Assembly: GCA_963805625.1 (NCBI GenBank)
Contig: CAWDVE010000021.1
Coordinates: 64,001-128,000 of the forward strand
From: an uncultured Candidatus Rokubacteria bacterium
Lineage (GTDB): Bacteria; Methylomirabilota; Methylomirabilia; Rokubacteriales; DASRDR01
Direction: 5' to 3'
DNA: 64,000 bases
The notes under the pieces are model-generated. The model was not told the origin of the DNA. It did not search any database and saw only the letters and a list, made by a program, of their open reading frames with translations. Shown piece after piece: positions 21,451 to 40,678 of the stretch (within the stretch, counting starts at the first letter, position 1; each line of letters opens with the position of its first letter). The position numbers were made by a program, and so were the translations under genes.

Positions 21451-22338
21451 TCACGTGGGCAGGACGGCCGACGCGAGCGCGCCCGCAATCCCCGCCAGCG
21501 CTCGGCCCGCTGGCGTCTCCCCGTGGTCGAGGACGAAGGGCCGCCCGCGGTCGGCGGCCGCGGCGAGCCGCGGGTCGAACGGGACTCGCCCGAGGAAGGG
21601 CAGGCCGTGCTGGGCGGCCGTCGCCTCTCCGCCCGGGCCCTCGAAGAGCGGGCCAACGGTGCCGCACGTCGGGCACACGTAGCCGGCCATGTTCTCGACC
21701 AGCCCGAGGAGCCGCGCCCCGCGCTCGCGGGCGAGAGTCATGGCGCGGCGCACGACCAGGTGGGAGACGCCGGAGGGAATCGTGACCACGACCGCGCCGG
21801 TCAGCCCGGGCAGGAGGTCGAGGAGCGTCGGCAACCGATCGGCGCCCGGCGGGAGGTCGATGAGGAGAACGTCGAGCGTGCCCCAGGCGGTGTCGGCCAG
21901 GAACTCACGGAGGGCCGTGCCCTCCATGGTCCCACGCCAGGTGTGGGCCTCGGCCTGGGTGGGAGCGTCCCACTCGACGGGCGCGTCGTCGCCGGGCAGG
22001 AGCAGATCCATCGACAGGACGCGGATCCCCTCGGCGGAGACGGCCGGCTGCACGCCATCCCGCTCGACCCGGAGCGTCTGACCGCGCACGCCCAGCATCT
22101 TGCCGATGGACGGGCCGTTGAGGTCCGCGTCGAGGACGCCCACCCGGAGCCCGCGCCCCACGAGCGCCCCCGCGAGGTTCGCGGTGACCGAGCTCTTGCC
22201 GACGCCGCCCTTGCCGGAGACCACTGCCACACTGGCGCGGATCGGGGCCATCCGGGCGGCGAGCCGTGCCTGCTGCGCGACGACCTGCTCGCGGATGTTC
22301 GAGCCGCCGTCGCCGGCGATGTCGCGATAGCCCTTCAC
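21451..22338 (-). CDS. Mrp/NBP35 (ApbC) family Fe-S carrier ATPase
   Basis: SGKGGVGKS, DADLNGPS, DLPPG, ENM..CPTC; GTGA overlap with the upstream stop. Confidence 0.9.
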   Translation of the reverse strand: MKGYRDIAGDGGSNIREQVVAQQARLAARMAPIRASVAVVSGKGGVGKSSVTANLAGALVGRGLRVGVLDADLNGPSIGKMLGVRGQTLRVERDGVQPAVSAEGIRVLSMDLLLPGDDAPVEWDAPTQAEAHTWRGTMEGTALREFLADTAWGTLDVLLIDLPPGADRLPTLLDLLPGLTGAVVVTIPSGVSHLVVRRAMTLARERGARLLGLVENMAGYVCPTCGTVGPLFEGPGGEATAAQHGLPFLGRVPFDPRLAAAADRGRPFVLDHGETPAGRALAGIAGALASAVLPT

Positions 22339-23351
22339 ACCCCGCTCCCCTCGTCGCTCGTGTCGAGCGGAGCCGCGGCGGGGTCCCGGAGGTGCGCCCG
22401 GAACCGGCACATGAGGTCCTCGCCGAGGAAATCCCCGGACTGGCCGTGACGCTCCGTCTCGAAGTAGTGCCGGATGCGATCCAGGCGCTCCTGCGCCTCG
22501 GGGTTCAGGCTCACCGTGCGGATCTCGGCCTTCGCCGCGTCGAAGGCATCGAACGTGAGTTCGGTGAAGCCGAGCTCGCGGATGCGCTTGACCGCCTTCA
22601 TCATCGCCTGGTTGCGGAACCGGGTGAGGAGCGGCGAGGTGATCTCGGCCACACCCATCCGCCGCGCGCGCCGCTCGGCCGCCTTCCGGATGCCCTCACG
22701 GACGAACTCCGGCGCCGTCTGGAGCCGCGCCCAGGCCTCGGGCGTCCAGCGCACGGGCGTCTCCGGTGCCGCCTGCCAGAGCCGCTCGACGACCTCCACG
22801 GTGACCCGGTCGAGGCCCGCGCGCCGTGCTTCGATCTCGACGTCCCGCTGGAAGAGGCGCAGCACGAAGTCCGCCATCATGGCCGGGGCCTTCCCGAGAC
22901 GCGCGACGAGCCGGGCCTCCGCCTCCGGCGTCCAGAGGAGCGGCACCGCTGCCGTTTCGGTCTCGGCCTCCGCCTCGGCTTCCCGGATCAAGGCCGGCGT
23001 TACCGCGACCGCGCCGTGCTCGGCCGCCAGCTCCTCGCAGATCCGACGCGTCATCGGCCGCATGAACGGCGGGACGGCGTCGAGCAGCGCCAGCGCCTCG
23101 GGGGTCCACGGCGCGGCCGACTGCGGAACCTGGTAGGCGCCGCTCGCGGCCAGACCCATCATCTCGCCCTTGTAGCGGGTCATGAGCTCGGGTGTGATCA
23201 CGCGGACGCCCTCGGCGCGCGCCCGCTTCTCGGCCAGCCGCCGGACCATGCCGCGGAGGAACACCGGAGCGCGCGCGACCCGCGCCTCGGCCTCCGGCGT
23301 CCAGCGCACCTCGCCGGGTTGGGGGTCCGGCGGCGATCCGGCCGCGCTCAC
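22335..23351 (-). CDS. Protein made of four tandem PCP_red-like (BchB/ChlB C-terminal) domains
   Basis: Four repeats each starting WTPEA and ending (I/V)T: WTPEAEARVARAPVF, WTPEALALLDAVPPF, WTPEAEARLVAR, WTPEAWARLQTAPEF. Confidence 0.8.
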   Translation of the reverse strand: MSAAGSPPDPQPGEVRWTPEAEARVARAPVFLRGMVRRLAEKRARAEGVRVITPELMTRYKGEMMGLAASGAYQVPQSAAPWTPEALALLDAVPPFMRPMTRRICEELAAEHGAVAVTPALIREAEAEAETETAAVPLLWTPEAEARLVARLGKAPAMMADFVLRLFQRDVEIEARRAGLDRVTVEVVERLWQAAPETPVRWTPEAWARLQTAPEFVREGIRKAAERRARRMGVAEITSPLLTRFRNQAMMKAVKRIRELGFTELTFDAFDAAKAEIRTVSLNPEAQERLDRIRHYFETERHGQSGDFLGEDLMCRFRAHLRDPAAAPLDTSDEGSGV

Positions 23352-23773
23352 GGCTCGCGGCTCCACGCCGCCCGCGCGAGCATCACGGCCGTGACGACCG
23401 TGAGGAGGCAGAAGGCCCAGGCGCCGGCCCGCAGGGACACGTCGAGCCCGAGGACGGAGACGGTCTCGGCGCGGGGCATCCGGGCGATCCGCGCCACCTC
23501 GATCGCGCGGAGCGCGACGAGAAGCGTCAGGACGCGCGCGAAGTCCCGCCGCGAGAGCACCCAGCGGTCGAACCACGCGCGCTCCTTGACGAGGAGCCAG
23601 GGGAAGACGACGACGAACAGGGCGCCCACGACGAACCAGGCCGTGCCCCCACGCTCCATGCCCCGCGGGCCGAGTCCACCGCTGGCCAGGACGAGCCCCC
23701 CGAGCCAGTAGACGACGCCGTAGGCGACGTAGGTCCAGGCAGCCTGACGGTATCGCGCCTCCCGGGTGTCCAT
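23348..23773 (-). CDS. Hypothetical membrane protein (~4 TM)
   Basis: 141 aa, hydrophobic, translationally coupled to the downstream gene. Confidence 0.7.
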   Translation of the reverse strand: MDTREARYRQAAWTYVAYGVVYWLGGLVLASGGLGPRGMERGGTAWFVVGALFVVVFPWLLVKERAWFDRWVLSRRDFARVLTLLVALRAIEVARIARMPRAETVSVLGLDVSLRAGAWAFCLLTVVTAVMLARAAWSREP

Positions 23774-23780
23774 CGCCGGC

Positions 23781-25163
23781 TCACCCGTCCCCGGCCACGG
23801 GAGGCCGGCCGGAGGCCGGCGTGAACGGTCGCCCCGGCGAGATGCCCCAGCGGCTCCGCACCTCGGCGAGGAGCGCCGGCGTCACCGTCGCCTGCCCCTG
23901 GCCGCGCGCGTAGGCCTCGACCGCCTGGACCACCATCGCCCGGGCGAACCCGGGGATGGCGTCGAGCCGGGCGCGGGCCGCCGGCTCCCACCCGAGCGCG
24001 AAGCGCACCTCGAGCCCGAACGTCTGCTCGACCCCGAGCCGGATCAGCTCGCCGCCGTGGGCACCCGGCTGGTAGCCGCAGGCCGGGTCCTCGGCGAGGT
24101 AGTCGCCGTAGGTCGCGTAGGCGCGGCAGCGGCAGCCGCCGCAGATCTCGCGGAACTCGCAGGCGCCGCACCGGCCGCCGAGCGGGCCCGTGCGAAGATC
24201 CGTGAAGACCCGGGACCGCTCCCACAGCTCGGCGAAGCCAGTCTCGCGGAGGTTCCCCGCCGCCACCGGCATGTAGGGACACGGCGTCACGTCACCCGTC
24301 GGCGTGATGCGGCAGTAGTACTTGCCGGCGGGACAGGAGCCGTGGGCGTAGTTGGCGAGGAGCGGGGAGCGGGGGTCCAGCTCGTAGAGTACCCGCCGGA
24401 AGTGCGGCGCGCACTTGGCCCGGATCAGGAGGCCGCCGGCCCGGCCGATGGGCACGCTCCACGGATCCTCGCGCCGCTCGAGGACGGAACCCGGCGCGGC
24501 CCCGTCGGGCGCGCCGCCCGCCCCCTGGGCGCGCGCCAGGTACGTGAGGATCTCCTCGTACTGCGCCGGCGTGATGTCGGTGAGGCCCTCGCCCCGGCCC
24601 GTCCGCACCAGGAAGAAGAAGTTGAGCACGCGTGCCCCGAGCTCCCGCGAGAGGTCGATCATCGCGGGGATCTCCCCGACGTTCCAGTCGGTGACGCTCA
24701 TGTGAAGCGAGAAATCGATCCCCTCCGCCCGGAGCGCCTCCGTCGCCCGGACGGCGGCGCGCCAGGCCCCGGGCAGGTGCCGGAACTCGTCGTGGCGCCC
24801 CGGATCGGTCGAGTCGAGGGAGAGCGAGGCGCCCTGGACCCCGTGCGTCTTCATGAGGCGCGCTTGCTTCTGCCGGAGGAGGACCCCGTTGGTCCCGAGC
24901 ACGACCGTGAAGCCGTGCTCGCGCCCCTCGGCGGCGAGCTCGAAGATGTCCGGGCGGAGGAGCGGCTCTCCGCCCGTTAGGATGAGGAACGTTCCGGGAT
25001 TCACCCGGGCGATGTCGGCCATCACCCGCCGGCACTCGTCCGTCGAGAGCTCGCCCGCCGCGGAGGCGCCCGGCGCCGCGCTGATGTAGCAGTGGGCGCA
25101 GAAGAGGTTGCAGCGCTGGGTGAGGTTCCACGAAACCGCGTACGCCTTGTAGGTCATCGCCAT
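23781..25163 (-). CDS. Radical SAM/SPASM enzyme (AhbD/NirJ-like) with a C-terminal PCP_red-like domain
   Basis: CNLFCAHC, TGGEPL, SPASM cysteines (CPAG..C..PCP..CGAC...CGGCRC..DPAC), tail WEPAARARLDAIPGFARAMV. Confidence 0.88.
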   Translation of the reverse strand: MAMTYKAYAVSWNLTQRCNLFCAHCYISAAPGASAAGELSTDECRRVMADIARVNPGTFLILTGGEPLLRPDIFELAAEGREHGFTVVLGTNGVLLRQKQARLMKTHGVQGASLSLDSTDPGRHDEFRHLPGAWRAAVRATEALRAEGIDFSLHMSVTDWNVGEIPAMIDLSRELGARVLNFFFLVRTGRGEGLTDITPAQYEEILTYLARAQGAGGAPDGAAPGSVLERREDPWSVPIGRAGGLLIRAKCAPHFRRVLYELDPRSPLLANYAHGSCPAGKYYCRITPTGDVTPCPYMPVAAGNLRETGFAELWERSRVFTDLRTGPLGGRCGACEFREICGGCRCRAYATYGDYLAEDPACGYQPGAHGGELIRLGVEQTFGLEVRFALGWEPAARARLDAIPGFARAMVVQAVEAYARGQGQATVTPALLAEVRSRWGISPGRPFTPASGRPPVAGDG

Positions 25164-25196
25164 AGCCGAGCTCACTCTACAACCCGTCTTGCAGGA

Positions 25197-25625
25197 TCAG
25201 TGGCGCGATGCCGCCGGTCTCCACCACGGCTGGAAGGTCGCCTCGAATTCAGCGCTCGCCCATTCAAGGCCGTCCACCCGCACAATGTACACGCCGCGCT
25301 TGAAGGCGAGCAGAGGCTCCCGTTCACCCTGAACGGTATTGACTCGGTCGCCTCGCAGGTAGACCCATAGCCGTGAGCTCCATGGCGCGAGTAGGTGGGG
25401 CTCGGCGTAGTCAAGGATGGTCCCCTCTTCGCCCCATGCTCGAACCCGTAGTGGTGGGCCCAGGGTCTCGAGGACTTCTTCGGATGTCATACCGGGACGG
25501 ACAGATCGGATGGAGGCGGCGCTGACGCCCGGTGCGACCCGCCAGTACGGTCCGACGACGCTCACCGTGAGCCCGCCTGCCACCAGGAGCGCCGTCGTCA
25601 TCGGTCGCCATCCCGCGAGGCTCAT
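25197..25625 (-). CDS. Small hypothetical protein with SmpA/OmlA-like motif
   Basis: N-terminal hydrophobic stretch, then IRSVRPGMTSEEVLETLGPP. Confidence 0.5.
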   Translation of the reverse strand: MSLAGWRPMTTALLVAGGLTVSVVGPYWRVAPGVSAASIRSVRPGMTSEEVLETLGPPLRVRAWGEEGTILDYAEPHLLAPWSSRLWVYLRGDRVNTVQGEREPLLAFKRGVYIVRVDGLEWASAEFEATFQPWWRPAASRH

Positions 25626-25714
25626 CGGGACCAAGCCTCCCGCCAGTCTGTGAGGCCTGGGCCTCTCCCTCGCGTCCAGGCTGTTGAGCGGCTGCCCACA
25701 ACTCTCCGAAAACG

Positions 25715-27616
25715 CTAGCTCTGGGGCTTGTTCTTGATGTAGCCGGCGATGACCTCGTTCATCGTGACCCGCGCGTGGCCGATCCCCTCCTCGCACAGGG
25801 CGAGGTCGATGAAGCCCACCTGCTTCTCGCGCGCCACCTTCTCGATCGCCTCGCGCGTCATGTCCCGCATGAAGCCCGCCGGCACGCGGTTCAGCCGCGC
25901 GACCGCGTCGTCGGTCCAGGTGAAGGCGCCGTTCGGGTCGGTCACGTCCTTGAGCGTCGCCTGGGCGAACCGCGTGTTGGCGATGAGCGTGTCCCAGCCG
26001 TCGCCGAGCTTGTCGCGTCCGACGGTCTCCTCGATCAGCGGGAACGCGATCTCCTTGGTGATCACGGGAATCTTGCGCGTCCGCGCGTACTTCTCGATCC
26101 GCGCCTTCGCGCGCCGCCGGAGGTAGGCGTCGGTGACCTCGCGGAGGCCCTCCCGCGCGTCGTTGGCCCAGCGGACCGTCACGCCGGGCATGACCTCCTC
26201 CTCGGCGATCCCCCCCTCGGCCGTGGCGATCTGCTCCACCGCCCGGCGGTCGATGTGCGTGAACCCCTCCGGGCCGCCCGAGCAGACCGGGCACTTCACG
26301 ACGGGGTTCGGGCCCTTCACGACGTAGCCGCAGACCGAGCAGATCGCCGTCACCGCGGCGTCCTCCGCCCGGAGCTTCGCGACCGCCAGGTCCTCGGCCA
26401 GGATCTGCATCTTCTCCGCCATCCGGCCCGGCATGAAGATCGCCATCGCCTCGTCGATCACCTTGGAGGTGATGACCGTGTGCCCCTGCTCGATCGCGTA
26501 CCGGAGGAGCGCCGTCCGGGCCACCCCCGCCACCTGCTCGGGGACCCGCTTCATCCGCTCCCGGGCCTCGTCTGTCCAGGCGATGATCTCTTCGGCCTTA
26601 ACGTCGAGGGGCGGATAGAACTTGCCCGCGACCAGGAGCACGTTGCACGGCGCCAGGCGGAGGAGGTTCTCCGTGTTGGACCCGAGGTCCGCCTCACGCT
26701 CGTCCGAGTGCACGCCGATGCGGCCCAGGATCAGGAGCCAGGGCTGCTCCTTCCGGCAGAACTGCAGCACCTTCTCGAAGCACTTGCCGTCGAGCAGCGT
26801 GATCGCGAGATCGACCCCCTCGTCGGCCGCGAGCTTCCGGCCAATCTCGAGGTGCGACTGGTAGATCTTGGCCAGCCCGGTGTCGATGATCTCCTCGTGG
26901 AGCTGCTCCTGCTCCTTGAAGCGGAAGACCTTCGAGGCCTGCTCGGTCAGCACGCCGACGATCCCGTTGAACATGGCATAGTGGAGGTAGGGATCGTAGA
27001 CGGCGACCGCATGGACCGGCCGGTGGAGGGCCTTGCCGAGCGCGATCCCGACCTTGAGCCCGTGGAAGGACTGGGGGCTTCCGTCGAGCCCGACGACGAT
27101 CGCGCCCTGCTGCGCTTCGGGCGGCTCGGGGCTCCGGATCACCAGCGTGTCGACCGGCGTCTTGCGCACAAACCGCTCGGTCACGGAGCCGAGCTGGCTG
27201 TCGCGGACCGCGCCAAGCCCGAGGGCGCCCATGATCACGAGGTCGTAGTCCTTGCCCTGGACGTCCTCGATCAAGGCCTTGTAGTGCTTGCCGTCCATCA
27301 TCCGCGGCTCGAACGGGAGCCCGGCGGCTTCCGTCTTCTTTCGCATCACCTCGAGGTACGAGTCGGAGACCAGCTGGAGGCCCATCGCGATCAGCGAGTC
27401 GTGGATCTTCCGCTGGCGCTCGAGCTCGTGCTCGTCCCGGTACTCCTCGGGCAGCGTGTACTCCATCTGCTTGAAGCGGTAGTCGTGAAGCCGCGCCGCG
27501 TAGACGTGGCAGCCGGTCAAGGTCGAGCCGAAGGCTCGCCCGAGCTCCACGGCCAGGTCGATGGCGCGGTTGGAGTAGTCCGAGTTGTCGACCGGCACGT
27601 AGATCTTCCGGAACAT
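25715..27616 (-). CDS. Multidomain protein: 2x universal stress domain + 3x PCP_red-like + rubredoxin-like site
   Basis: USP motifs KIYVPVDNS/MGALG..LGSVTE and IVVGLDGS/LGSNTENLLR; CSVCGY..CPVC; three W(T/A)xx A repeats; GGGAGG RBS. Confidence 0.88.
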   Translation of the reverse strand: MFRKIYVPVDNSDYSNRAIDLAVELGRAFGSTLTGCHVYAARLHDYRFKQMEYTLPEEYRDEHELERQRKIHDSLIAMGLQLVSDSYLEVMRKKTEAAGLPFEPRMMDGKHYKALIEDVQGKDYDLVIMGALGLGAVRDSQLGSVTERFVRKTPVDTLVIRSPEPPEAQQGAIVVGLDGSPQSFHGLKVGIALGKALHRPVHAVAVYDPYLHYAMFNGIVGVLTEQASKVFRFKEQEQLHEEIIDTGLAKIYQSHLEIGRKLAADEGVDLAITLLDGKCFEKVLQFCRKEQPWLLILGRIGVHSDEREADLGSNTENLLRLAPCNVLLVAGKFYPPLDVKAEEIIAWTDEARERMKRVPEQVAGVARTALLRYAIEQGHTVITSKVIDEAMAIFMPGRMAEKMQILAEDLAVAKLRAEDAAVTAICSVCGYVVKGPNPVVKCPVCSGGPEGFTHIDRRAVEQIATAEGGIAEEEVMPGVTVRWANDAREGLREVTDAYLRRRAKARIEKYARTRKIPVITKEIAFPLIEETVGRDKLGDGWDTLIANTRFAQATLKDVTDPNGAFTWTDDAVARLNRVPAGFMRDMTREAIEKVAREKQVGFIDLALCEEGIGHARVTMNEVIAGYIKNKPQS

Positions 27617-27780
27617 GAAGGCCTCCCTTGGCGACGCCGGAATCACTTGAGCTCGAACTCGACCGCGCCCTCGCCTTCGCGCGAGGCGGGGACGCGGTGG
27701 CGCCCCGGCGGACTCTCACCGATGCGGCACTGGCTACTCTCCGGCGCGGCCACGCCCCGGCGCATCCTAGCGTCGTCGCC

Positions 27781-28167
27781 TCACGGCCCGCCTGGCCCAG
27801 GCTGTCCGGAGGCATCGGTCGGGTCCACCAGGTGGTCGAGCGCCAGCCAGAGCGCCTTGCTGTACCGGAACGACCAGAGCGGGAAGAAGACCGTGAAGGC
27901 GCCCCAGACGAGCACCTGCCACCGGGGGGACGGCGCGAGCCACGCCTCGAGCAGGAAGTAGCCGGCCACCGCGAGCCCCACCGTCAGGCCGTAGTTGATG
28001 TAGATCGCGCCGATGAAGTACCCGGTCTCGCGCTCGAAGAGGAGCCCACACGCCGGGCAGCGTGGCAGCATGCGAACGAGCCCGGTGAAGAGGGGCGCCC
28101 CGCCGCAGCGCGGGCACCGGAGCCCGACCGCTCGCCGGAGCGCCTGAGATACGCGGGCGCGGTCCAC
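27781..28167 (-). CDS. DUF983-like membrane protein
   Basis: CPRCG..LF..CPACG..FERETG followed by two TM helices. Confidence 0.75.
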   Translation of the reverse strand: MDRARVSQALRRAVGLRCPRCGGAPLFTGLVRMLPRCPACGLLFERETGYFIGAIYINYGLTVGLAVAGYFLLEAWLAPSPRWQVLVWGAFTVFFPLWSFRYSKALWLALDHLVDPTDASGQPGPGGP

Positions 28168-28189: not shown

Positions 28190-28603
28190 TCATCCATGAT
28201 AGAGCATCCAGTACACCACTACGCCCGTCACCGATACGTAGAGCCAGATCGGGAACGTGACCCGGGCCAGCCGCGCGTGGCGCGCGAACTGGGACCGGAG
28301 CGCCCGATAGAGGGTCGTCGAGACCAGCGGGACGATCGCGACGGCCAGCACGGTGTGGGTCAGCAGGATCAAGAGGTAGAGCGTCCGAAGCCCGCCCTCG
28401 CCGCCGTAGGGACGCGAGCCCACCTGGGCGTGATAGACAAGGTACGAGCAGAGGAACAGCACCGAGAGACCGACGGCCGTCAGCATGCAGGCCCGGTGCA
28501 CGGCGATGCGCCGCTGCCGGATGGCCACGAAGCCGACGAGCATCGCCACCGCCGCCGACGCGTTCAGCACCGCGTTGATGGTCGGCAGGATGGTGAGACT
28601 CAC
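28190..28603 (-). CDS. DUF420 (CtaM-like) oxidase-associated membrane protein
   Basis: LPTINAVLN, HRACM, FLCSYLVYH, IWLYVSVTGVVVY. Confidence 0.88.
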   Translation of the reverse strand: MSLTILPTINAVLNASAAVAMLVGFVAIRQRRIAVHRACMLTAVGLSVLFLCSYLVYHAQVGSRPYGGEGGLRTLYLLILLTHTVLAVAIVPLVSTTLYRALRSQFARHARLARVTFPIWLYVSVTGVVVYWMLYHG

Positions 28604-28634: not shown

Positions 28635-28961
28635 TCAATGCTGCGGCGCCTCGACCTTCTTCGAGTCGGCCGTCTGGTGCGGCGCGTGGAGCGAGTCGGG
28701 CAGCAGCACCATCACCAGGAGCGCGCCGATCACCACCGGCGTGAGGGCGATGTAGCCCAGCGTCTTCACCTCGAGGCGGAGATGCATGAAGTAGAGCGCC
28801 ACCATCGCCGCCTTCGTGGAGGCCAGGATCACCAGCAACACGCCGACCGCCATCTTGGCGATGGGCAGGTAGATGACCGCGATCTCGATCACCGTGAGCA
28901 CCGCCAGGTACCAGAAGATGGCCATGTAGCTCGGCCCGTGCTTCGCGTGAGTGTCCGCCAT
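28635..28961 (-). CDS. Cytochrome c oxidase subunit IV
   Basis: LAVLTVIE, KAAMVALYFMHL. Confidence 0.88.
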   Translation of the reverse strand: MADTHAKHGPSYMAIFWYLAVLTVIEIAVIYLPIAKMAVGVLLVILASTKAAMVALYFMHLRLEVKTLGYIALTPVVIGALLVMVLLPDSLHAPHQTADSKKVEAPQH

Positions 28962-28986: not shown

Positions 28987-29610
28987 CTACAGGAGGTAAA
29001 TGAACGTGAAGACCATGATCCAGACCAGGTCGACGAAGTGCCAGTAGAGCCCGGCGATCTCCGAGACCATGTAGTTGTACTGCATGTCCTTGACTCGGCT
29101 GATCACCTTGTAGATCGAGAGGAGGTAGATCACGCCGCCGGTCACGTGCAGCCCATGGAAGCCCGTGATGATGAAGAAGCTCGCCCCGAAGAGCGTGGAC
29201 CCCCAGGGGTTCCCGAAGATCTTGAGCCCGCGGTGAATCAGGTGTGTCCACTCGTAGGCCTGGAGCCCGACGAAGATCGCCCCGCCCAGCGCCGTGAGCA
29301 GGACGAACATCTTGGCGCGCGCCAGGTTCGAGCTCTTGAGATTCTCGAGCGCCTTCACCATGGTGACGCTCGAGCAGATCAGGAGGAACGTCATCAGGGC
29401 GGTGAGCTGGATGCCGAGCACCTGGGCTGGGTGCGGCCAGTCGACGCTGCCGGCTCGCAGGGCACCGTAGGAGGCCAGGAGCACGCCGAATCCCACGGCG
29501 TCGCCGGCCAGGAAGATCCACATTCCGAGCTTGCCCCAGCTCTCAGGCGTCAGGGGCGACTCGACCGGCTCGACGGCCGGATGGTGCAGCGCGGTAGCTG
29601 CGTCGCTCAC
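28987..29610 (-). CDS. Cytochrome c oxidase subunit III (second copy)
   Basis: KLGMWIFLAGD, TGFHGLHV, GLYWHFVDLVW. Confidence 0.9.
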   Translation of the reverse strand: MSDAATALHHPAVEPVESPLTPESWGKLGMWIFLAGDAVGFGVLLASYGALRAGSVDWPHPAQVLGIQLTALMTFLLICSSVTMVKALENLKSSNLARAKMFVLLTALGGAIFVGLQAYEWTHLIHRGLKIFGNPWGSTLFGASFFIITGFHGLHVTGGVIYLLSIYKVISRVKDMQYNYMVSEIAGLYWHFVDLVWIMVFTFIYLL

Positions 29611-30330: not shown

Positions 30331-30471
30331 TCAGTTCCGCAGCCAGGCCACGGCGGCCGACGCGACCATGAGGAGAACGATCCAGGCCACGAGCACCACC
30401 GCCGTCCGGCGGTTTCGACTCGGAAGGCTGCGCGTGACCGTCGACCCGGCATCCGGCCTCGAGGCGGACAT
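30331..30471 (-). CDS. Small single-TM protein (46 aa) inside the cox operon
   Basis: Translated by hand: MSASRPDAGSTVTRSLPSRNRRTAVVLVAWIVLLMVASAAVAWLRN*. It fills the gap between ctaB and the first subunit III gene. Confidence 0.6.
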   Translation of the reverse strand: MSASRPDAGSTVTRSLPSRNRRTAVVLVAWIVLLMVASAAVAWLRN

Positions 30472-32355: not shown

Positions 32356-34104
32356 TCAGTGCCCGTGCCCGCCCGCGCGGGCGCCGGCGACCACCTGGGT
32401 CTGGGGCAGGTAGTCCTCGATCATCCCGGGGACGCTGTACTCGTAGGGACCCCGGTAGACCGTCGGGATCGCCGCCCCCCAGTTGCCGTGGGGCGGAGGC
32501 GACTCCGCCGTCCACTCGAGCGTGTTGGAGTGCCAGGGATTCCGGTCCGCCTTCCGCCCATTGAACAGGCTCGCGACGAAGTTCCAGATGAACAGGATCT
32601 GCGCAACGCCGAGGATGAACGCGGACACCGACATGAACACGGCGATCGGCTGGAGGGACTGGAGGAACTCGTACTGCGTCGGATTGTAGATCCGTCGCAT
32701 CATCCCGCCCACCCCCAGGAAGTGCATCGGGAAGAACACGAGGTTGAAAAAGACGAACGTGAGGATCGCGTGGATCCGCCCCATCGTCTCGTTCATCTCC
32801 CGACCGAAGAGCTTCGGGTACCAGTACGTGATCGCAGCGAACATCGCGAAGATGATCCCCGCCACCACGTAGTGGAAGTGGGCCACGATGAAGTAGGTAT
32901 CGTGGATGAAGATGTCGACCGGCGTGTTGGCCATGAAGATGCCGCTCAGCCCGCCGATCGTGAACGCCGACAGGAACGAGATGGCATGGATCATCGGCGT
33001 CGTGAACCGGATCGAGCCGCCCCAGAGCGTCCCGAGCCAGTTGAACGACTTGATGGCGGACGGCACCGCGATGACCATCGTCGTCAGCATGAACGACGTG
33101 CCCAGCGCGGGGCTCATGCCGCTGACGAACATGTGGTGGCCGTAGACGATCCACGACAGGAACGCGATCGAGATCATCGAGTAGGCCATCGCCCGGTACC
33201 CGAAGATCGGCTTCCGCGAGAAGGTGGACAGGACGTCCGAGGTCACCCCCATGGCGGGCAGCACCAGGATGTAGACCTCCGGGTGGCCGAAGAACCAGAA
33301 GAGGTGCTGCCAGAGCAGCGGCTCACCGCCCCCCGACGGGTCGAACCAGTGGGTCCCGAGCGTGCGGTCGAAGAGCAGCATCGCCGCCGCCGACGTCAGC
33401 ACGGGCAGCGCCAGCAGGAGCAGGATGGCCGTGATGAACAGGGACCAGATCACGAGCGGCAGCCGGAATAGTGTCATGCCGGGCGCCCGCATATTGACGA
33501 CCGTCGTGATGTAGTTGATCGAGCCCATCATCGACGACACGCCGAGGAAGAACAAGCTGATGAGCCAGAGGTTCTGGCCCCAGTTCACCCCGGTGTACTG
33601 CGGATTCGCCGAGAGCGGCGCGTAGGCCGTCCACCCGGCCGCGGCGTGGCCGCCGGGCACGAAGAAGCCGGCCAGCATGATGACGCCCGACAGGGCGCCC
33701 GTCCAGAACGAGAGCATGTTGAGCTTGGGGAACGCCATGTCCCGGGCGCCGATCATGAGCGGGATCAGGAAGTTCCCGAAGCACCCCACCATGATCGGCA
33801 TGACCACGAAGAAGATCATGAGGGTGGCGTGCATCGTGAACAGCATGTTGTAGACCTCGGGCGGGATCACGCCCTCCGTCTCGCTGAAGAGCCAGTGGAG
33901 GCCGGGCACCGGCGTCTCGGGCCAGCCCAGCTCCCACCGGATCAGCATGGCCAGGAAGCCGCCGATCAGCAGCATGAACAGCCCGAGAAACAGGAACTGC
34001 CGGGCGATCATCTTGTGGTCGGTCGAGAAGATGTACGTGCGCACGAACCCGAGGTCGTGGTGCTCGTGGACGTCGTGCGCCGCTGCCGTCGTGCTCTGAG
34101 CCAT
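32356..34104 (-). CDS. coxA: Heme-copper oxidase subunit I, A1 type
   Basis: MHAT, RDMAFPKLN (D-channel), FGHPEVY, HHMF, AIK (K-channel), AHFHY, GMMRR. Confidence 0.96.
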   Translation of the reverse strand: MAQSTTAAAHDVHEHHDLGFVRTYIFSTDHKMIARQFLFLGLFMLLIGGFLAMLIRWELGWPETPVPGLHWLFSETEGVIPPEVYNMLFTMHATLMIFFVVMPIMVGCFGNFLIPLMIGARDMAFPKLNMLSFWTGALSGVIMLAGFFVPGGHAAAGWTAYAPLSANPQYTGVNWGQNLWLISLFFLGVSSMMGSINYITTVVNMRAPGMTLFRLPLVIWSLFITAILLLLALPVLTSAAAMLLFDRTLGTHWFDPSGGGEPLLWQHLFWFFGHPEVYILVLPAMGVTSDVLSTFSRKPIFGYRAMAYSMISIAFLSWIVYGHHMFVSGMSPALGTSFMLTTMVIAVPSAIKSFNWLGTLWGGSIRFTTPMIHAISFLSAFTIGGLSGIFMANTPVDIFIHDTYFIVAHFHYVVAGIIFAMFAAITYWYPKLFGREMNETMGRIHAILTFVFFNLVFFPMHFLGVGGMMRRIYNPTQYEFLQSLQPIAVFMSVSAFILGVAQILFIWNFVASLFNGRKADRNPWHSNTLEWTAESPPPHGNWGAAIPTVYRGPYEYSVPGMIEDYLPQTQVVAGARAGGHGH

Positions 34105-34152: not shown

Positions 34153-34809
34153 CTAGGAAGGCCATTTTTCCTTGAGCCACTGCTGGTATTCCTCGGGCGT
34201 GTGGACGAAGAGGTAGCCCTTCATCCCGGAGTGGCCGAACCCGCACAGCTCGGCGCACGGGATCTCGTACTTTCCGGGCTTGGTCACCTCGACCCACTGG
34301 ACGATCTCACGGCCGGGTACCGCGTCCTGCTTGAAGCGCGCGGTCGGAATGAAGACGCTGTGGATCACGTCTCGCGCGCGCAGGTGCATGACCACCGGCT
34401 TGCCCGTCGGCACGTGCAGCTCGTTGTCGAACGACTGGTCGTCGGCCGTGTCGAACTTCCCGTCCGGCCCCGGGTACTGAACCTCCCAGTTGAACTGCTT
34501 TCCGGTGATGCGGACGTGGAGATCGGACTCGGGGATGCGGCTCTTGACCTTCGACCAGCTCGGGATCGAGAGGAAGGTGAGCACGACCAGGATCAGGGAG
34601 GGAACGATCGTCCACACCATCTCGAGGGTCGTGTTGCCGTGGCTGTAGACCGCCCTCCGGCCGGGCCGCTCCCGGTACACCACCAGGAAGGCCACCAGCA
34701 GCACCGTCACGAGCACGAACACGCCGCCGGTGATGTAGTAGATCAGATAGAAGAGGTCGTCGAGCTCCTTGCCGTACGTGGCAATGTTCTCAGGGAGCCA
34801 GCTCATCAT
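34153..34809 (-). CDS. coxB: Cytochrome c oxidase subunit II (CuA)
   Basis: LEMVWTIVP, DVIHS, CAELCGFGHSGM. Confidence 0.95.
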   Translation of the reverse strand: MMSWLPENIATYGKELDDLFYLIYYITGGVFVLVTVLLVAFLVVYRERPGRRAVYSHGNTTLEMVWTIVPSLILVVLTFLSIPSWSKVKSRIPESDLHVRITGKQFNWEVQYPGPDGKFDTADDQSFDNELHVPTGKPVVMHLRARDVIHSVFIPTARFKQDAVPGREIVQWVEVTKPGKYEIPCAELCGFGHSGMKGYLFVHTPEEYQQWLKEKWPS

Positions 34810-34884
34810 CGCAGTCGGCCCGTCCTTTTCGATCGAAGGGGGGTCACGGCCTCGCCGCGCGCCTGGGCTCGGGCCCCGAACTCC

Positions 34885-34928
34885 GGCGTGCGCTCCCGCG
34901 GACCGCCTCGGCTACGGGAGCGCACGCC
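34885..34928 (-). promoter_or_regulatory. Intergenic stem-loop between the cupredoxin gene and coxB
   Basis: GGCGTGCGCTCCCG (34885-34898) and CGGGAGCGCACGCC (34915-34928) form a perfect 14-bp inverted repeat. Confidence 0.6.
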
Positions 34929-34939
34929 ATTCCGGGGTC

Positions 34940-35638
34940 CTACTTCTTTAGCTCGAACGCGACCTTGGTGTCCTGCCCGGCCTTGACCTCGACCTCTTTG
35001 GTCTGCTTGCCGAGCACCGGGTGAACGACCTCGACCTTGTGCTTACCGGGCGGCACGTTCTCCAGCTTGAACGCGCCGTTGCCGTCGGTCACCGCCGTGG
35101 GGTTCTCGGTCACGAAGATCCACCCGTGCATCCAGCTGTGGGCGTCGCACTGGACCTTGACGAGCTCGGGCTTGTCGAGCTTCTCCACCATCTCCTTCTT
35201 GAACTTCGGCTGCGCCTTGTTGATCGGCGGATTGGCTGTGGAGAAGGTGTGGATGTTGTGGAGAACGCCGTCCGAGTTGAGGATCTTGAGCTCGCCGGGC
35301 GACATCACGAGGAGATCCGGATGAAACTCGCAGCCCTTCTGATCGAGGACGGCCGGCTTCGCCGGCTTGGCGCCCTTGGCATCGGTGACGGACACGAGCG
35401 CTTCGCTCAGCCCACCACCGGCGCCGACGACGACGTCGGCGACCTTCTTCTCCTGGCCGCAGACCTCGCTGTCCTTGTTGACCTTGATGACCTTGGGCGC
35501 AGGGGCGGCGCCGGTGAACTTCACCTCGCCGCTGATCGACCCTCCGCCCTGGGCGCTCAACGGCGGCCCTGAGATCAGGGCGACCCCCGCCGCGACGACC
35601 GCGACGGCCAGCACGCTAACGACGATCGACTGCCTCAT
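34940..35638 (-). CDS. Exported cupredoxin-like protein flanked by a carboxypeptidase-regulatory-like domain
   Basis: Signal peptide; DQKGCEF, NSDGVLHNIH, CDAHSWM (type-1 Cu ligands); AGGAGAAGGA upstream. Confidence 0.82.
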   Translation of the reverse strand: MRQSIVVSVLAVAVVAAGVALISGPPLSAQGGGSISGEVKFTGAAPAPKVIKVNKDSEVCGQEKKVADVVVGAGGGLSEALVSVTDAKGAKPAKPAVLDQKGCEFHPDLLVMSPGELKILNSDGVLHNIHTFSTANPPINKAQPKFKKEMVEKLDKPELVKVQCDAHSWMHGWIFVTENPTAVTDGNGAFKLENVPPGKHKVEVVHPVLGKQTKEVEVKAGQDTKVAFELKK

Positions 35639-35672
35639 TGAAGTCCTTCCTCCTTGTGATCGAGTATCCGAG

Positions 35673-37946
35673 CTACGCGGCCTCTTGCCGCCGGCGGGCC
35701 CATCGCGCCAGCCCGAGCTCGGCGGCCCCTGCCACGAGCGCCAGGATCGGTGGCATGACGAACTGCCGCTTCGAGGGTGGCGGCTCGAGCCGCGCATAGT
35801 ACCAGGTCGACACGGCCCCCTTCGGGCCGTCATCCCCTTCCGAGCCGTCCCAGGCCCAGAACGCTACCGGGAAGAACTCGCCGGGGCGGAAGGCAAAATC
35901 CGAAGAATCCGCCGTCTTGAGCGGGCGCCGGATCACGGCCCGGTACTGGCCGGCATCGTAGACCGCCTGCCCCTTGGCCTGGATCGCCTCCCCCGCCTGC
36001 GGCGTCATCTTGCCCACTCCCGTCGCCGTCGCCTCGCCGACATCCACGCCCGCGCGCCAGGTCAAGAGATAGACAGGGTGGCTCCCGTCCCCCATCAGGA
36101 AGTACGGACGGTCTCCCGTCCCTTGCCCCGTCGGAAGCTGGATGGCGACCATGTCCGGCTTCGGCGCCCCCTTCGTCGGATCGGACGCCGTGGGGTCGTC
36201 CCAGGTCAGATGGAATACCGCCTCCCGCTCAGTGTACACCGCCCGCACGGTGACCATGTCGACAGTCGGGTTGAAGTTGCGGGGGTCCGCGATGACCTGG
36301 CCGACCAAGGGGAAGGCGGCTCCGGGCCGCTTCACCCAGAACTCCGCGTTCGGATCGGCCGGCACGTCCCCCGTCGCAGGCGGGATCGACAGGAGGGGCG
36401 CCCAGTTGAGGCGCTCCGGCCCCAGCGACCGGACGTAGTTCGCGAGATCCCAGAGGCTCGCGTCCCGCACGTCCGTGTCCTTCTCGTCGGACTTCCGGTA
36501 GTCCTCGACCGAGTCGGCGATGGCCGGCATGGGCGTCCCCGCCACCCCGGTCAGGAGCCGCATGACCACGTCCTTCCGCTCCGAGCCACCCCGGAAGTTC
36601 CACGGCGCGTGGAGGTTGGCCGGACGGATCGGGTGACCCCAGTCGTCCTTGAGATCCGAGCCCGGCGCCGGATCGCCGCGGCCGGCCTGGCCGTGGCACT
36701 TGACGCACTCGAAGGCGTCGAACATCTTCTTGCCCCGGCGGAGGGACGTCTCGGAGGAGGCGACCTCCTTCGGGACCGCGACGGGCTCGAGCTTGGCGCC
36801 CTTGTAGGACTCGGCGAACGTCTTCACGTATGCCACGACCGCCGAGCGCTCCTTGTCCGGGAGCGACCTCCAGGAGGGCATCGACGTCCCGGGCATCCCG
36901 TCCGTCACGATCCGGAGGAGGTCCTGGTCGGACGCGAGCGGTCCGGCCAGGGTGCGGATCTTGTACTTCCCGGCCGTGAAGTCCCGGGGCCGGGGGACGA
37001 GGAGCTCGGCGGCGGGTCCGTCGCCCTTGCCGTCGGCACCGTGACATCCGGCGCAGCGCTTCTCGTAGACCTGCTTCCCGAGCGCGACGTCGCCGGACTG
37101 GGCGGCCGCCGGCCGCGGTCCGAGGATGGCGGCACCCTCCGCCAGGAGTCCCGACGCGGGGCCCGGAGCCGCCGCCGGCCGCGCCGCGTGCGACTCCATG
37201 ACCCTGGGGGGATGGCCCGTCGTCTCGTAGAGGTAGTAGATCACCTGCCAGATCTGCTCCTCGGTCAGCCGATCTTCCCAGGCTGGCATGGCCGAGTTCC
37301 ATGGCGTCGATTCCTTGGGGAGGCCGGGGCCGCCCTTGGCAATGCGCCAGAACACGAAGCCCTCGGAGAGCTGGGCGATCGTGTTCGGGCCGACGAAGTC
37401 GGCGGGCTGCGGGTTGAAGCCGTGGGCGAAGTGCCCCCGGCCGTCCAGGAGGTCGCCGTGGCAATACACGCAGTTCCGGATGTACGTCGCCGCCCCGGCC
37501 GCGAGGTGCTTCTCGCGGCTCGCGGGGTTCTGCTTGATGTCCTTCCGGATCGGCGTATCGGCGTGCTGGAGATTGACCTCCTTGCCGCGGAAGCTGATCG
37601 AGTCCGGCGGCGCCGGGTGGACCGCGCGGAGCTCGAGCGGTGCCTCGGCGCGCGCCGCCGCCTGGGAATAGGCGTAGTAACCGACCAGGATCGGGATGAC
37701 GACCCCGAGGAACAGGCGCAGCGGGCGGCGCCCGGGCTCGGCGAGCGTCGCCCAGATGGGCGCCACGAAGGCGCGCCAAGAGTCGGAGTCCGACGAGACA
37801 TAGACCAGAACGGCCATCAGCGTGACCGCCATGTAGAGCGAGAACACGCTGAAGGGCATGGGCGGGCGGATGCCGTACTTGAAGAGGAGGGCGGCCACGA
37901 TCAGGACCAGGGCAGCCTGGAGGAACTTCCCGCGCGGCGCTGGCAT
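35673..37946 (-). CDS. Membrane-bound triheme cytochrome c with C-terminal EB_dh (DOMON-like heme b) domain
   Basis: N-terminal TM helices; CVYCH, CAGCH, CVKCH; WDDPT..DMVAIQ..PYFLMG..FWAWDG..K..STW; C-terminal TM. Confidence 0.85.
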   Translation of the reverse strand: MPAPRGKFLQAALVLIVAALLFKYGIRPPMPFSVFSLYMAVTLMAVLVYVSSDSDSWRAFVAPIWATLAEPGRRPLRLFLGVVIPILVGYYAYSQAAARAEAPLELRAVHPAPPDSISFRGKEVNLQHADTPIRKDIKQNPASREKHLAAGAATYIRNCVYCHGDLLDGRGHFAHGFNPQPADFVGPNTIAQLSEGFVFWRIAKGGPGLPKESTPWNSAMPAWEDRLTEEQIWQVIYYLYETTGHPPRVMESHAARPAAAPGPASGLLAEGAAILGPRPAAAQSGDVALGKQVYEKRCAGCHGADGKGDGPAAELLVPRPRDFTAGKYKIRTLAGPLASDQDLLRIVTDGMPGTSMPSWRSLPDKERSAVVAYVKTFAESYKGAKLEPVAVPKEVASSETSLRRGKKMFDAFECVKCHGQAGRGDPAPGSDLKDDWGHPIRPANLHAPWNFRGGSERKDVVMRLLTGVAGTPMPAIADSVEDYRKSDEKDTDVRDASLWDLANYVRSLGPERLNWAPLLSIPPATGDVPADPNAEFWVKRPGAAFPLVGQVIADPRNFNPTVDMVTVRAVYTEREAVFHLTWDDPTASDPTKGAPKPDMVAIQLPTGQGTGDRPYFLMGDGSHPVYLLTWRAGVDVGEATATGVGKMTPQAGEAIQAKGQAVYDAGQYRAVIRRPLKTADSSDFAFRPGEFFPVAFWAWDGSEGDDGPKGAVSTWYYARLEPPPSKRQFVMPPILALVAGAAELGLARWARRRQEAA

Positions 37947-37949
37947 CGG

Positions 37950-38792
37950 CTAGGGCTTGGCCTTCGCGGCCGGCTGACCGGCGGGAGCCGGGGCCGGGCT
38001 ACCCTTGAGGGTCAGCAGGAACGAGACGAGGTCGATGTACTCCTTCGCCGCGAGCTGCTGGCCGAACGTCTTCGGCATGACGCCCGGCGGGAACCCGGAC
38101 ACGGTGCCCTTGGAAGCCGGGTCCAGGATCTTGCCCATGATGTACTCCGGCGTCTGGCTGCCGGCGATGTTGGACAGATCGGGCCCGACCGGGCTCGCCC
38201 CGATCGCGCCCGCCTTGTGACACGCGACGCAGGCGCCCTTGCCCGTGAAGACGGCCTGGCCCGCCTTCGGGTCTCCCGGCAGCTCGATCGACGCCGCGCC
38301 GGCGCCCCCCTGGGCCGTGGCGATCTGCGGCACGTCGTCGAGCTTGACGTCCACCGTCCCGCCGAGGCTCTCGAGGTAGGCCGTGACCGCCCACAGCTCG
38401 CTCCGGTTCAGGCCGATGGGCGGCTTCGACACGTTGGGCATGATGTTCGGGAAGCCCTCGACCACGTAGGCGCTCGGGGTGAGGAACGACTCGACCAGGT
38501 ACGCCGCCGCCTTGGTCCCGGGCTTCCGGGTCGCCGCGCGGGCGCCGACCCCCGCGAGATCCGGCCCGCGGCCGGCGCGGCCGATGCCGTGACACGTCGT
38601 GCATTGCCCCTTCTCGCGGAAGATCTTCTCGCCCGCGGCCACCAGCTGGTCGGGTGTGACGTTCCCGCCCTCGAGGGACAGCTCCTCGGGAGGCTTGGAC
38701 TCGATCTGGGGGATCGAGTTCGCGTACCAGCTGTAGCTGCCCATGACCGCGAGGGCGAACGCTCCCACCTTGACCGGCACGGGAACCGTCAT
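37950..38792 (-). CDS. Membrane-anchored diheme cytochrome c
   Basis: CTTCH..GPDL..MP and CVACH..GPDL..MP. Confidence 0.9.
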   Translation of the reverse strand: MTVPVPVKVGAFALAVMGSYSWYANSIPQIESKPPEELSLEGGNVTPDQLVAAGEKIFREKGQCTTCHGIGRAGRGPDLAGVGARAATRKPGTKAAAYLVESFLTPSAYVVEGFPNIMPNVSKPPIGLNRSELWAVTAYLESLGGTVDVKLDDVPQIATAQGGAGAASIELPGDPKAGQAVFTGKGACVACHKAGAIGASPVGPDLSNIAGSQTPEYIMGKILDPASKGTVSGFPPGVMPKTFGQQLAAKEYIDLVSFLLTLKGSPAPAPAGQPAAKAKP

Positions 38793-38797
38793 CGCGC

Positions 38798-40678
38798 TCA
38801 GCGCTCGGTACTGCCGCCGGCGATCGGGGCGGCGGCAGGGGTAGGGTGGCCCCCGGGGGCGCTCTCGGCCGCTGGATGGCCCTTCTCACCGAGTCCCCCA
38901 AGCCAAAAAATGAACATGACCATCAGGAAAAACAGGATGGTCGTGCCCGTGATCACGTTCGCCGCGTACCCGAGGGCCGGCGTCAGGGCATCGGGCGACC
39001 GATCCTGCATGACCCCGTAGATGTGCCAGTGCTGCCGGATTCCCGACCGCGCGAAGCCCATCAGGCCCATCAACCACGTGAAGGTCACGGCGAGAAGGAT
39101 GAGCACGTACTGGGAGCGCGGGGCGATGGTCCCCCAGCGGATCGTGCCCGTGGAACGGGCTCCCCGGAGCATCGGGATGTCGATCGCCATCACGATCACG
39201 ATGCACAGGAGGACCGAGCCCACCTGCAGCGGCGAGAAGCGCCGGATGCGGACGATCGCCTCCACGAAGTATCCGCCGAGTCCCAGGCCCACCACGGCGG
39301 CGGCAGCGAGCGCGAAGGTCGCGTACTGGAGCAGCATCCCTGTCCGCGCCCACGATACGGTGGGCTCCCGGTTCGCCCGGCGATACAGCAGGTAGGAGAA
39401 GAACGTCGTGAGGATCATGAGGTTCACGGCGGTGTTCTTCGCGCTCATGACCCCGAAGAAGCGGAGGAACCGGTGGTCCGACCCGCCCATGGCCCGGACC
39501 TCGCCGAGCGAGGCGATGAGGCTCCGTGGCGTGGCCCAGACCATGAACCCCAGCGCGATCACGAGGAGGAGGTACTTGATCCAAGGCCGGAAGCGCTCGG
39601 CGCCCGGGATGCGCTCCATCCCGAGCCAGAGGTAGTAGTTCGAGCCGAGGAACAGCACCCCGATGAGAATGGCCTGGACGATCCAGAGCCACGACATGAA
39701 GCCGCCCATCATCGTGATGCCCATCGTCTGGTTGTAGCCGTAGATCTCGAACCCGAGCCAGTACCCGGCGAACGGCAGGACCATCAGGGCCGAGAGCGCC
39801 ACGAAGTTCCCGATGTAGCCCATCCAGTCGTAGCGGGCCCGCTCCTCGTCGGTCTTGGCGCCGAGGAACCGGAAGGCCGCGTACCCGGCGGCGATCGTGC
39901 CCCCGAAGACGACGTTGGCGATGAGCCGGTGGATGTTGACCGGCATCCACGTGAAGTTGTTCACGGCCTGCCAGAGGGTCCCCGTGAACTTGCCGGCGTC
40001 GTCCACGCCCGCCGGCGAGATCATGAACGTCACCCACGAGTTCGACACGAACAGGATCGCGGTGCCGAGGAGGTTCGAGAGCACGCCGATCCCGACGTGG
40101 AGCCCCTTCCTCGGCCCCGAGAGCCAGTTCCAGCCGTAGTACCAGAGGTACACGGTGAACGTCTCGAGGAAGAAGAGGGCCGCGTACAGCCACATCGTGG
40201 GCGCGAAGATCCCGCTCATGAAGGTCCAGAACCTCGGATAAAGCGTGATCAACAGGAAGAGGAGCAGCCCCCCGAGCAGCGCCGTCGTCGAGAAGGCCGC
40301 AAAGGTGAGCTTGACGAATTCGTGGGAAAGCCAGTCGTAGCGCCGTCCCTCCTCGCGGTCCAACCCGATCCGCCAGCCCATGAACTCGATGATCACGGCG
40401 AAGATCGGGACCCCGAGGATGAACGCCGCGAAGTTCAGGTGGATCTGGGCAATCACCCAAATCGCCAGCCGGGAGCCGACGTAGGGAAACGCCCGGTAGG
40501 CGGCCTCCTTCTGCTCCTGGGCCCAGCCCGGGGTCACCAGGAGGGCGACCGCCGCGGCCGCCAAGAGGACCGGGAGGAGGCGCGGGAGTCGGGACGATCC
40601 CGTATCGCTCGGGATCAGGCGCGGTCGCGCGGTGGTCGTGCCGAGGCTCCTTCGGGGTCCAGGCACTGCGAGCGGCAC
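38798..40678 (-). CDS. Cytochrome bd-like (CydA superfamily) subunit without Q-loop; start codon uncertain
   Basis: AQIHLNF, FFLET, NSW..SPAG, IHRLIAN, GVMSAK, RQHW (equivalent to GRQPW); no cydB nearby. Confidence 0.85.
   Translation of the reverse strand: MPLAVPGPRRSLGTTTARPRLIPSDTGSSRLPRLLPVLLAAAAVALLVTPGWAQEQKEAAYRAFPYVGSRLAIWVIAQIHLNFAAFILGVPIFAVIIEFMGWRIGLDREEGRRYDWLSHEFVKLTFAAFSTTALLGGLLLFLLITLYPRFWTFMSGIFAPTMWLYAALFFLETFTVYLWYYGWNWLSGPRKGLHVGIGVLSNLLGTAILFVSNSWVTFMISPAGVDDAGKFTGTLWQAVNNFTWMPVNIHRLIANVVFGGTIAAGYAAFRFLGAKTDEERARYDWMGYIGNFVALSALMVLPFAGYWLGFEIYGYNQTMGITMMGGFMSWLWIVQAILIGVLFLGSNYYLWLGMERIPGAERFRPWIKYLLLVIALGFMVWATPRSLIASLGEVRAMGGSDHRFLRFFGVMSAKNTAVNLMILTTFFSYLLYRRANREPTVSWARTGMLLQYATFALAAAAVVGLGLGGYFVEAIVRIRRFSPLQVGSVLLCIVIVMAIDIPMLRGARSTGTIRWGTIAPRSQYVLILLAVTFTWLMGLMGFARSGIRQHWHIYGVMQDRSPDALTPALGYAANVITGTTILFFLMVMFIFWLGGLGEKGHPAAESAPGGHPTPAAAPIAGGSTER

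Follow-up and report, generated by a model that had tools for sequence, protein, structure and literature searches.

A cytochrome bd-like module ahead of an aa3 oxidase operon in Rokubacteriales: a possible electron donor in the position of complex III

Gene content and family assignments

Open reading frame (ORF) listing, translation and Pfam/NCBIfam scans of a 64-kb window (the whole stretch of DNA analysed, from contig CAWDVE010000021.1 of a Rokubacteriales genome) showed 20 genes in a single minus-strand run at positions 21451-40678, and the original prediction of about 20 consecutive minus-strand genes with named identities was borne out. The run begins with a three-gene module encoding a CydA-like protein, a dihaem cytochrome c and a trihaem cytochrome c with an EB_dh domain, followed by a cupredoxin gene, the genes for an aa3-type oxidase and its assembly (coxB to DUF983) and a tail block. 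We interpret the module as a possible electron donor to the oxidase encoded behind it, because a Rieske/cytochrome b complex holds the same slot in the sister order Methylomirabilales. The genes from the CydA-like protein to DUF983 are, in order:

38798..40678, minus strand: CydA-like OR-N membrane haem protein (PF01654, E 1e-13; start codon uncertain, analysed from 40570)
37950..38792, minus strand: dihaem class I cytochrome c (2 CxxCH)
35673..37946, minus strand: membrane-anchored trihaem cytochrome c with EB_dh haem-b domain, an alternative-NxrC-like fusion (3 CxxCH, PF09459, three predicted transmembrane segments)
34940..35638, minus strand: type-1 copper protein whose plastocyanin-like domain lies within a split beta-sandwich (model and ligand conservation)
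34153..34809, minus strand: CoxB with intact CuA motif, no fused cytochrome c and no CxxCH (Pfam/NCBIfam, motif count)
32356..34104, minus strand: CoxA, A1-type heme-copper oxidase (GHPEVY, D- and K-channel and His motifs)
31403..32326, minus strand: CtaA haem a synthase (domain scan)
30496..31406, minus strand: CtaB haem o synthase, frameshifted by one base within a run of G near 31195 (domain scan, alignment)
30331..30471, minus strand: 46-aa ORF with a single transmembrane segment and no family (transmembrane prediction)
29633..30322, minus strand: subunit III, first copy (domain scan)
28987..29610, minus strand: subunit III, second copy (domain scan)
28635..28961, minus strand: subunit IV (domain scan)
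28190..28603, minus strand: DUF420 (domain scan)
27781..28167, minus strand: DUF983 (domain scan)

The closest relatives of the CydA-like protein came from Rokubacteria/Methylomirabilota, and its predicted model (pTM 0.88), comprising a signal segment and 13 long helices, superposed on CydA 5ir6_A with a Z of 33.5 and an rmsd of 3.6 over 356 aligned residues. A single-sequence search of the PDB gave 0 matches; a profile search matched canonical CydA only (5doq_A, E 3e-16) and no OR-N chain. Homology, the CydA fold and the His19 ligand (H44 in 33/36) place the protein in the cytochrome bd superfamily. Compared with E. coli CydA, equivalents of His19, Glu107 (E136, kept in 27/36), His126, His186 and Arg448 were retained, the Glu99 position was occupied by Tyr129 (Tyr in 32/36), and the Q-loop was replaced by helices, with Lys252 and Glu257 absent. 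The helix of Glu445, which we take to be a haem ligand, carried no Glu in either alignment register, a statement confined to that helix because the Met393 and Glu445 positions differ between aligners. Roles of His19, Glu99, Glu107, His126, His186 and Met393 follow the passages used here from Murali et al. (bioRxiv 10.1101/2021.01.16.426971).

These features exclude a canonical quinol-oxidising bd oxidase (qOR), as the Q-loop, Lys252/Glu257 and Glu99/Glu445 are missing, no CydB is encoded beside the CydA-like gene and its PF01654 match is the only one in the whole genome, leaving no second CydA. The absence of CxxCH from the protein likewise speaks against the OR-C group. We assigned it to the OR-N1/N2 group because its retained and lost residues and the replaced Q-loop match the features of that group, whose pattern of about 14 transmembrane helices, no quinol site and an operon with alternative carriers was also found. 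Likeness to OR-N1/OR-N2, the 14-helix proteins as treated in the sources cited here, thus covers CydA N-terminal homology, the His19 equivalent, the missing quinol-binding loop and CxxCH, the 13 helices plus signal segment and a single CydA accompanied by alternative electron carriers; the difference is that the gene here lies inside a heme-copper oxidase operon, in the complex III slot of sister taxa. The nearest Atlas clusters were mostly from Nitrospirota. Placement in OR-N1 versus OR-N2 was dropped, as the quick CydA tree lacked type sequences and its E. coli branch was very long; the single-CydA operon agrees with what the text of Murali et al. says of OR-N2. The model also resembles ActF (Z 23.1) and PsrC (Z 15.5) in its four-helix-bundle fold, a match that was not used as functional evidence.

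Profile matches of the trihaem c/EB_dh protein were to 6h5l_B (E 5.6e-45), presumably a Kuenenia-type dihaem cytochrome, and to the NXR-C chain 7b04_C (E 4.4e-6). Pfam made no call on the cupredoxin. Residues 65-148 of its AlphaFold model (pTM 0.88) matched plastocyanin (Z 11.9, rmsd 1.7, 84 aligned), and the ligands H98/C135/H138/M141, invariant in 46/46 homologues, identify a type-1 copper cupredoxin. Because its only hydrophobic segment is N-terminal, the protein is predicted to be a soluble, diffusible periplasmic carrier to CuA.

The oxidase half, with six His ligands, GHPEVY, D- and K-channel residues and the CuA motif, is by its sequence an ordinary A1-type aa3 heme-copper oxygen reductase. 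It resembles other members of that type in its CoxA and CuA motifs and in having CtaA, CtaB and subunits III and IV, and differs from them in its two subunit III genes and in its likely donor, a cupredoxin in place of a cytochrome c (fused or soluble); the earlier observation that CoxB lacks a fused cytochrome c was upheld. The ctaB frameshift is likely a long-read or assembly error, since ctaB is in frame in 4/4 close relatives aligned.

Linkage to the oxidase and exchange with a Rieske/cytochrome b complex

The synteny survey covered 80 loci, of which 56 had at least 5.5 kb downstream and 24 were too short. The module was followed in line by coxB in 50/56 long-enough loci and lacked it in 6/56. 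The CydA-like gene occurred in 22/81 Gemmatimonadota genomes with a coxB match just downstream in 21 and, on inspection, in the 22nd as well (22/22), so the cluster proposed in the original prediction is well conserved in two phyla. Among 66 Rokubacteriales genomes, 14 lacked the CydA-like gene and all 14 also lacked this CoxB; 49 of the 52 carriers had a CoxB match, one of which (G039) was a paralogue, while the locus in G174 was cut by a contig end and G143 held a CoxB paralogue only. That the two halves might prove unlinked in relatives had been named beforehand as a finding contrary to the proposal, and this applied in part, as they were unlinked in Methylomirabilales and a few Rokubacteriales and linked in most others. 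In split operons the cupredoxin remained with whichever half was left and therefore behaved as expected of an interface carrier. A second, paralogous OR-N module (CydA 50-54% identical with an insertion, cupredoxin-flanked) was observed at L113 (G039:C50) and L137 (G100:C8), the former with its own Mrp/radical SAM/PCP_red genes.

The oxidase locus was retrieved from 14 Methylomirabilales genomes, one being a paralogue at a contig end, so that 13 were counted. In 11/13 of these, petC-petB-petD-octahaem c lay directly 5' of cupredoxin-coxB-coxA (identities from Pfam; two loci contig-cut), and the orthologous run behind the Rieske genes extended through cupredoxin-coxB-coxA-ctaA. No upstream complex was present in the other 2/13, and the module occupied that slot in 0/13. 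The claim that the genes upstream of coxB stand in the electron-donor position of a cox operon was thereby supported. A FastTree CoxA phylogeny joined the Methylomirabilales clade and the module-linked CoxA of Rokubacteriales as sister groups (support 93), with module-linked Gemmatimonadota CoxA next (91), away from the caa3 paralogues. There was no CydA-family gene in 5 of the 11 Rieske-linked Methylomirabilales, and at the three Methylomirabilales module loci with listed downstream ORFs a small monohaem cytochrome c came next, not a cupredoxin. Conversely, no close orthologue of the slot petB was found in 41 Rokubacteriales (distant match only in 10/41) or in 22 module-bearing Gemmatimonadota (distant match only in 8/22). 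Among the titles and abstract openings listed by searches of the open-access literature, none described this slot swap or this operon; subscription journals lay outside their scope and the supplement of Murali et al. may show the context.

Two further observations concern the Rieske-linked operons. An octahaem protein (8 CxxCH, 908 aa) stands at the place of cytochrome c1/f (L107:1917-6893 in G044:C15, L140-L143, L145-L150), and in L165 (G060:C53), from a Gemmatimonadota genome without the module, Rieske-cytochrome b-octahaem genes precede a different aa3 operon (CoxA 52% identical).

Neither NrfD with ActB nor Rieske with cytochrome b was found inside the cluster, and both types are encoded elsewhere in the genome, as a complete actABCDEF operon at C10:564127-571345 (ActC E 1.8e-120 to 6f0k_C) and a Rieske/cytochrome b pair at C13:322893-324449, together with a caa3 oxidase on C17 and further heme-copper oxidases (genome contamination estimate 6.3%). 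The earlier statement that bc1 and alternative complex III (ACIII) genes are missing thus holds for the cluster but not for the genome. The related expectation that carriers of the cluster lack bc1/ACIII failed, as ActC matches occurred in 37/41 relatives (35 close orthologues), including 27/27 of the high-quality ones, and in 73/81 Gemmatimonadota, including 22/22 module carriers. Because ActC occurs in all good carriers, the module is additional to ACIII and not its replacement. G044, G135 and G137 also have both ACIII and the Rieske-linked operon (in G045 ACIII is followed by caa3), so that the presence of ACIII does not make a dedicated donor to this oxidase superfluous. The module resembles ACIII (6F0K, 6BTM) and the Rieske/cytochrome b complexes found before aa3/caa3 oxidases in its operon position and in the ActF/PsrC four-helix-bundle fold, and differs from them in having no Rieske, NrfD, Fe-S/molybdopterin subunit or identified quinol site, with a true ACIII encoded separately.

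Other respiratory loci were also observed. In this genome, C10:1780371-1787932 (L096) encodes a second NrfD-type complex (pentahaem c, molybdopterin subunit, Fe-S subunit, NrfD, tetrahaem c/EB_dh), and C19:307600-322900 (L099) a Tat-type NarG/NxrA-like enzyme, its beta subunit and an EB_dh gamma subunit, beside NrfA/NrfH-like multihaem genes and a heme-copper oxidase preceded by a short gene resembling subunit II. At L109 (G044:C15:1893-15944), the genes directly 5' of the ACIII operon encode NarG/Nxr-like alpha and beta subunits and a homologue of the trihaem/EB_dh protein.

Transcription, tail block and neighbouring genes

Two features bear on transcription of the gene train:

40728..40757, minus strand: predicted sigma70-like promoter, TTGACA-18 nt-TACAAA, 5' of the CydA-like gene (same two boxes at other loci)
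34810..34939, minus strand: 130-bp gap between the cupredoxin gene and coxB, containing a GC-rich hairpin without a U-tract (conserved in its own genus)

The motif TTGACA-N17/18-TA(C/A)AAA, with a variable spacer, was found 5' of the CydA-like gene in 32/77 loci (77 of 80 had enough upstream DNA; 3 were too short). A strict promoter scan gave 0 sites and missed the boxes at 40728-40757; the same scan found no minus-strand terminator-like sites in any intergenic gap of the train. These gaps were at most 48 bp, apart from that of 130 bp before coxB, one of 164 bp between DUF983 and the USP gene and one of 89 bp. The small gaps and the single conserved promoter make co-transcription of the train plausible. 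Nineteen RNA runs contained just 5-9% of words. Contigs of relatives in four RNA runs bridged coxB-cupredoxin, cupredoxin-trihaem and trihaem-dihaem, and were not counted as evidence for a single transcript because contigs cannot show one and DNA carry-over is possible. The gap between the cupredoxin gene and coxB was at most 50 bp in 34/45 loci. In L021 it contained a hairpin followed by a promoter-like TTGACA-17-GATAAT site, which suggests that the oxidase genes are separately controlled in that lineage.

Behind DUF983 lie the remnant of a gene and the tail block:

27643..27765, minus strand: remnant of a second cupredoxin gene (gene present at that place in 8/9 relatives examined)
25715..27616, minus strand: USP + rubredoxin-like + PCP_red repeat protein, which travels with the bd-like module (domain scan, synteny)
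25197..25625, minus strand: 142-aa ORF with a weak BamE-domain match, inside the PCP_red block in this genome only
23781..25163, minus strand: AhbD/NirJ2-like radical SAM/SPASM protein with a PCP_red tail (matches below NCBIfam cut-offs)
23348..23773, minus strand: small membrane protein, no family (transmembrane prediction)
22335..23351, minus strand: PCP_red repeat protein (domain scan)
21451..22338, minus strand: Mrp/ApbC-type Fe-S carrier ATPase (Pfam/NCBIfam)

The USP/PCP_red and radical SAM genes lay 3' of the oxidase genes in 9/9 long Rokubacteriales loci, with Mrp in 8 and the remaining locus cut by a contig end. In 15/80 loci, chiefly from Gemmatimonadota and Methylomirabilales, the radical SAM gene lay 5' of the CydA-like gene, and no tail block stood beside the Methylomirabilales oxidase operons L107 and L108, the two with downstream DNA listed in full. 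As the block tracks the bd-like module, the USP/radical SAM/Mrp genes are likely its maturation system; the USP/PCP_red protein likely acts in maturation or regulation, and the AhbD-like enzyme may point to haem handling. The 142-aa ORF is missing from a 98%-identical relative and is likely a recent insertion; the second-cupredoxin deletion is common to this window and a 98%-identical genome. Elsewhere in the window, a short fragment at 21023-21412 between mrp and an acetolactate-synthase-like gene is probably a truncated gene, presumably resembling the start of a Zn-dependent hydrolase. A ribosomal protein/rpoA cluster at 49235-51499 (genes we take to be rplQ-, rpoA-, rpsD- and rpsK-like) includes an RpoA-like ORF of just 249 aa whose C-terminal domain is seemingly absent.

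Possible functions of the module

We propose, with a probability of about 0.42, that the module is the electron donor of the aa3 branch, a quinol-to-cupredoxin complex working in parallel with ACIII and caa3, and not a second oxygen reductase. Electrons would pass from quinol to the b haems of the CydA-like protein, from these to the haems of the dihaem c and trihaem c/EB_dh proteins, and on through the cupredoxin to CuA and O2, forming a branch parallel to the ACIII-to-caa3 branch encoded elsewhere. In addition to the Rieske/cytochrome b complex in the same slot, this interpretation draws on the absence of CydB and of Glu99/Glu445 equivalents, though that of His186 is kept, and on the conserved linkage of module and coxB together with the absence of the slot petB orthologue from carriers. 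It draws further on conservation of the module in anaerobic anammox bacteria and on the ACIII-like role suggested in the passages used from PMC3578206 and PMC6606698. A stable supercomplex of module and aa3 would be unnecessary, because the carrier is predicted to be soluble, and we consider it unlikely.

Several observations weigh against a donor role. No quinol site was identified in the CydA-like protein, which lacks the Q-loop and Lys252/Glu257 and whose Met393 equivalent is ambiguous, and it retains equivalents of His19 and Glu107, residues that belong to the oxygen site of bd oxidases. Loss of Glu99 and Glu445 extends across the whole family, including Nitrospirota members treated as oxygen reductases in papers. 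Every good carrier also has an ACIII, which could supply the module and aa3 alike. Either half may also occur alone: G039 and G188 kept the module and cupredoxin without the oxidase, L041 has the module without this oxidase, G109, from Gemmatimonadota, has the oxidase but no module, and five Methylomirabilales with the Rieske-linked operon carry the module elsewhere. Joint absence is explicable by physical linkage alone, kin are not independent, and both arrangements possibly arose by differential loss from one three-part cluster, mimicking a swap.

Alternatively, the module may be a second, cytochrome c-fed oxygen reductase, so that two oxidases share c and copper carriers fed by ACIII. This is the standard interpretation of OR-N proteins, which rank among the oxygen reductases in Murali, Gennis and Hemp (bioRxiv 10.1101/2021.01.16.426971), and the same gene set is named terminal oxidase TO_1 in Manganitrophus by Yu et al. 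(bioRxiv 10.1101/2021.11.15.468770), as far as the passages used from both show. It agrees with the retention of His19, Glu107, His126 and Arg448 equivalents in a CydA fold (Z 33.5), with the occurrence of the module without aa3 in some genomes, and with the near-universal ACIII, behind which no oxidase was found in 6/6 module-bearing genomes checked. Nevertheless, Glu99, Glu445, CydB and a second CydA are missing, the module is reported from obligately anaerobic anammox bacteria (PMC3578206, in the passages used), and a second oxidase by itself leaves unexplained the complex III in the same slot of 11/13 Methylomirabilales. According to the portion cited here of PMC10839748, OR-N oxygen reductase activity is without experimental confirmation. 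We regard a second oxidase as less likely than a donor role.

Less probable still is a branch point of the kind proposed for nitrite oxidisers, where high-potential periplasmic electrons enter at the EB_dh haem b and the c haems, some flowing downhill to aa3 and others being pushed uphill into the quinone pool by the proton motive force. Resemblance of the EB_dh domain to NXR subunit C, the separate NarG/NxrA-type enzyme with an EB_dh subunit in this genome and the link of homologous clusters in Nitrospira and anammox bacteria to reverse electron flow (PMC6606698 and PMC3578206, in the passages used) would fit this arrangement, but the operon has no molybdoenzyme or other dehydrogenase gene and the same quinone site would be required as for a donor, of which none was identified. 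That module and aa3 merely share a promoter, with the module serving peroxide/NO detoxification or haem handling, would suit the unlinked halves in Methylomirabilales and the promoter-like site and hairpin just before coxB in L021, but is very unlikely given a tight gene order conserved over two phyla and a cupredoxin that stays with either half of split operons.

Both the family and the module are already known, and the comparative slot swap is what our analysis adds. In the parts of the papers cited here, the Nitrospira bd-like_3/alt_NxrC_2 cluster (PMC6606698), the Nitrospina/Kuenenia cluster (PMC3578206) and Manganitrophus TO_1 (bioRxiv 10.1101/2021.11.15.468770) likewise combine bd-like, monohaem c, dihaem c, EB_dh and cupredoxin proteins, and for the second of these it was put forward that bd-like proteins might work like ACIII if quinone-binding. 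The Rokubacteriales cluster differs from them in having no NXR genes and an apparently fused monohaem c and alternative NxrC, and in being followed by an aa3 oxidase, which is reported as absent from Nitrospira. On one contig from a Nitrospirota-named query (L124), a CydA-like gene (44% identical) is followed by dihaem and trihaem homologues. Returning to the donor role, a tentative generalisation would be that OR-N bd-like modules do not reduce oxygen but form a third class of complex III on a cytochrome bd scaffold. Such a complex would carry electrons from quinol through c haems and blue copper to aa3, would be genetically interchangeable with a Rieske/cytochrome b complex and would operate in reverse in anammox bacteria and nitrite oxidisers.

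Annotations in Nitrospira, Nitrospina, Manganitrophus, anammox bacteria and soil metagenome-assembled genomes describe OR-N proteins as high-affinity bd oxidases, yet no assay is reported in the passages of the papers cited here. The slot swap provides a concrete and testable alternative for their function and names the cupredoxin and CuA as the likely acceptor. Even if the donor role is wrong, the compact two-oxidase operon would still let OR-N proteins be examined in organisms other than nitrite oxidisers. If the donor role is right, a protein with the bd fold would have been switched from terminal oxidase to complex III-like donor, counts of 'cydA' would overstate the microaerobic capacity of abundant soil phyla, and a candidate function would emerge for the membrane anchor of nitrite oxidation.

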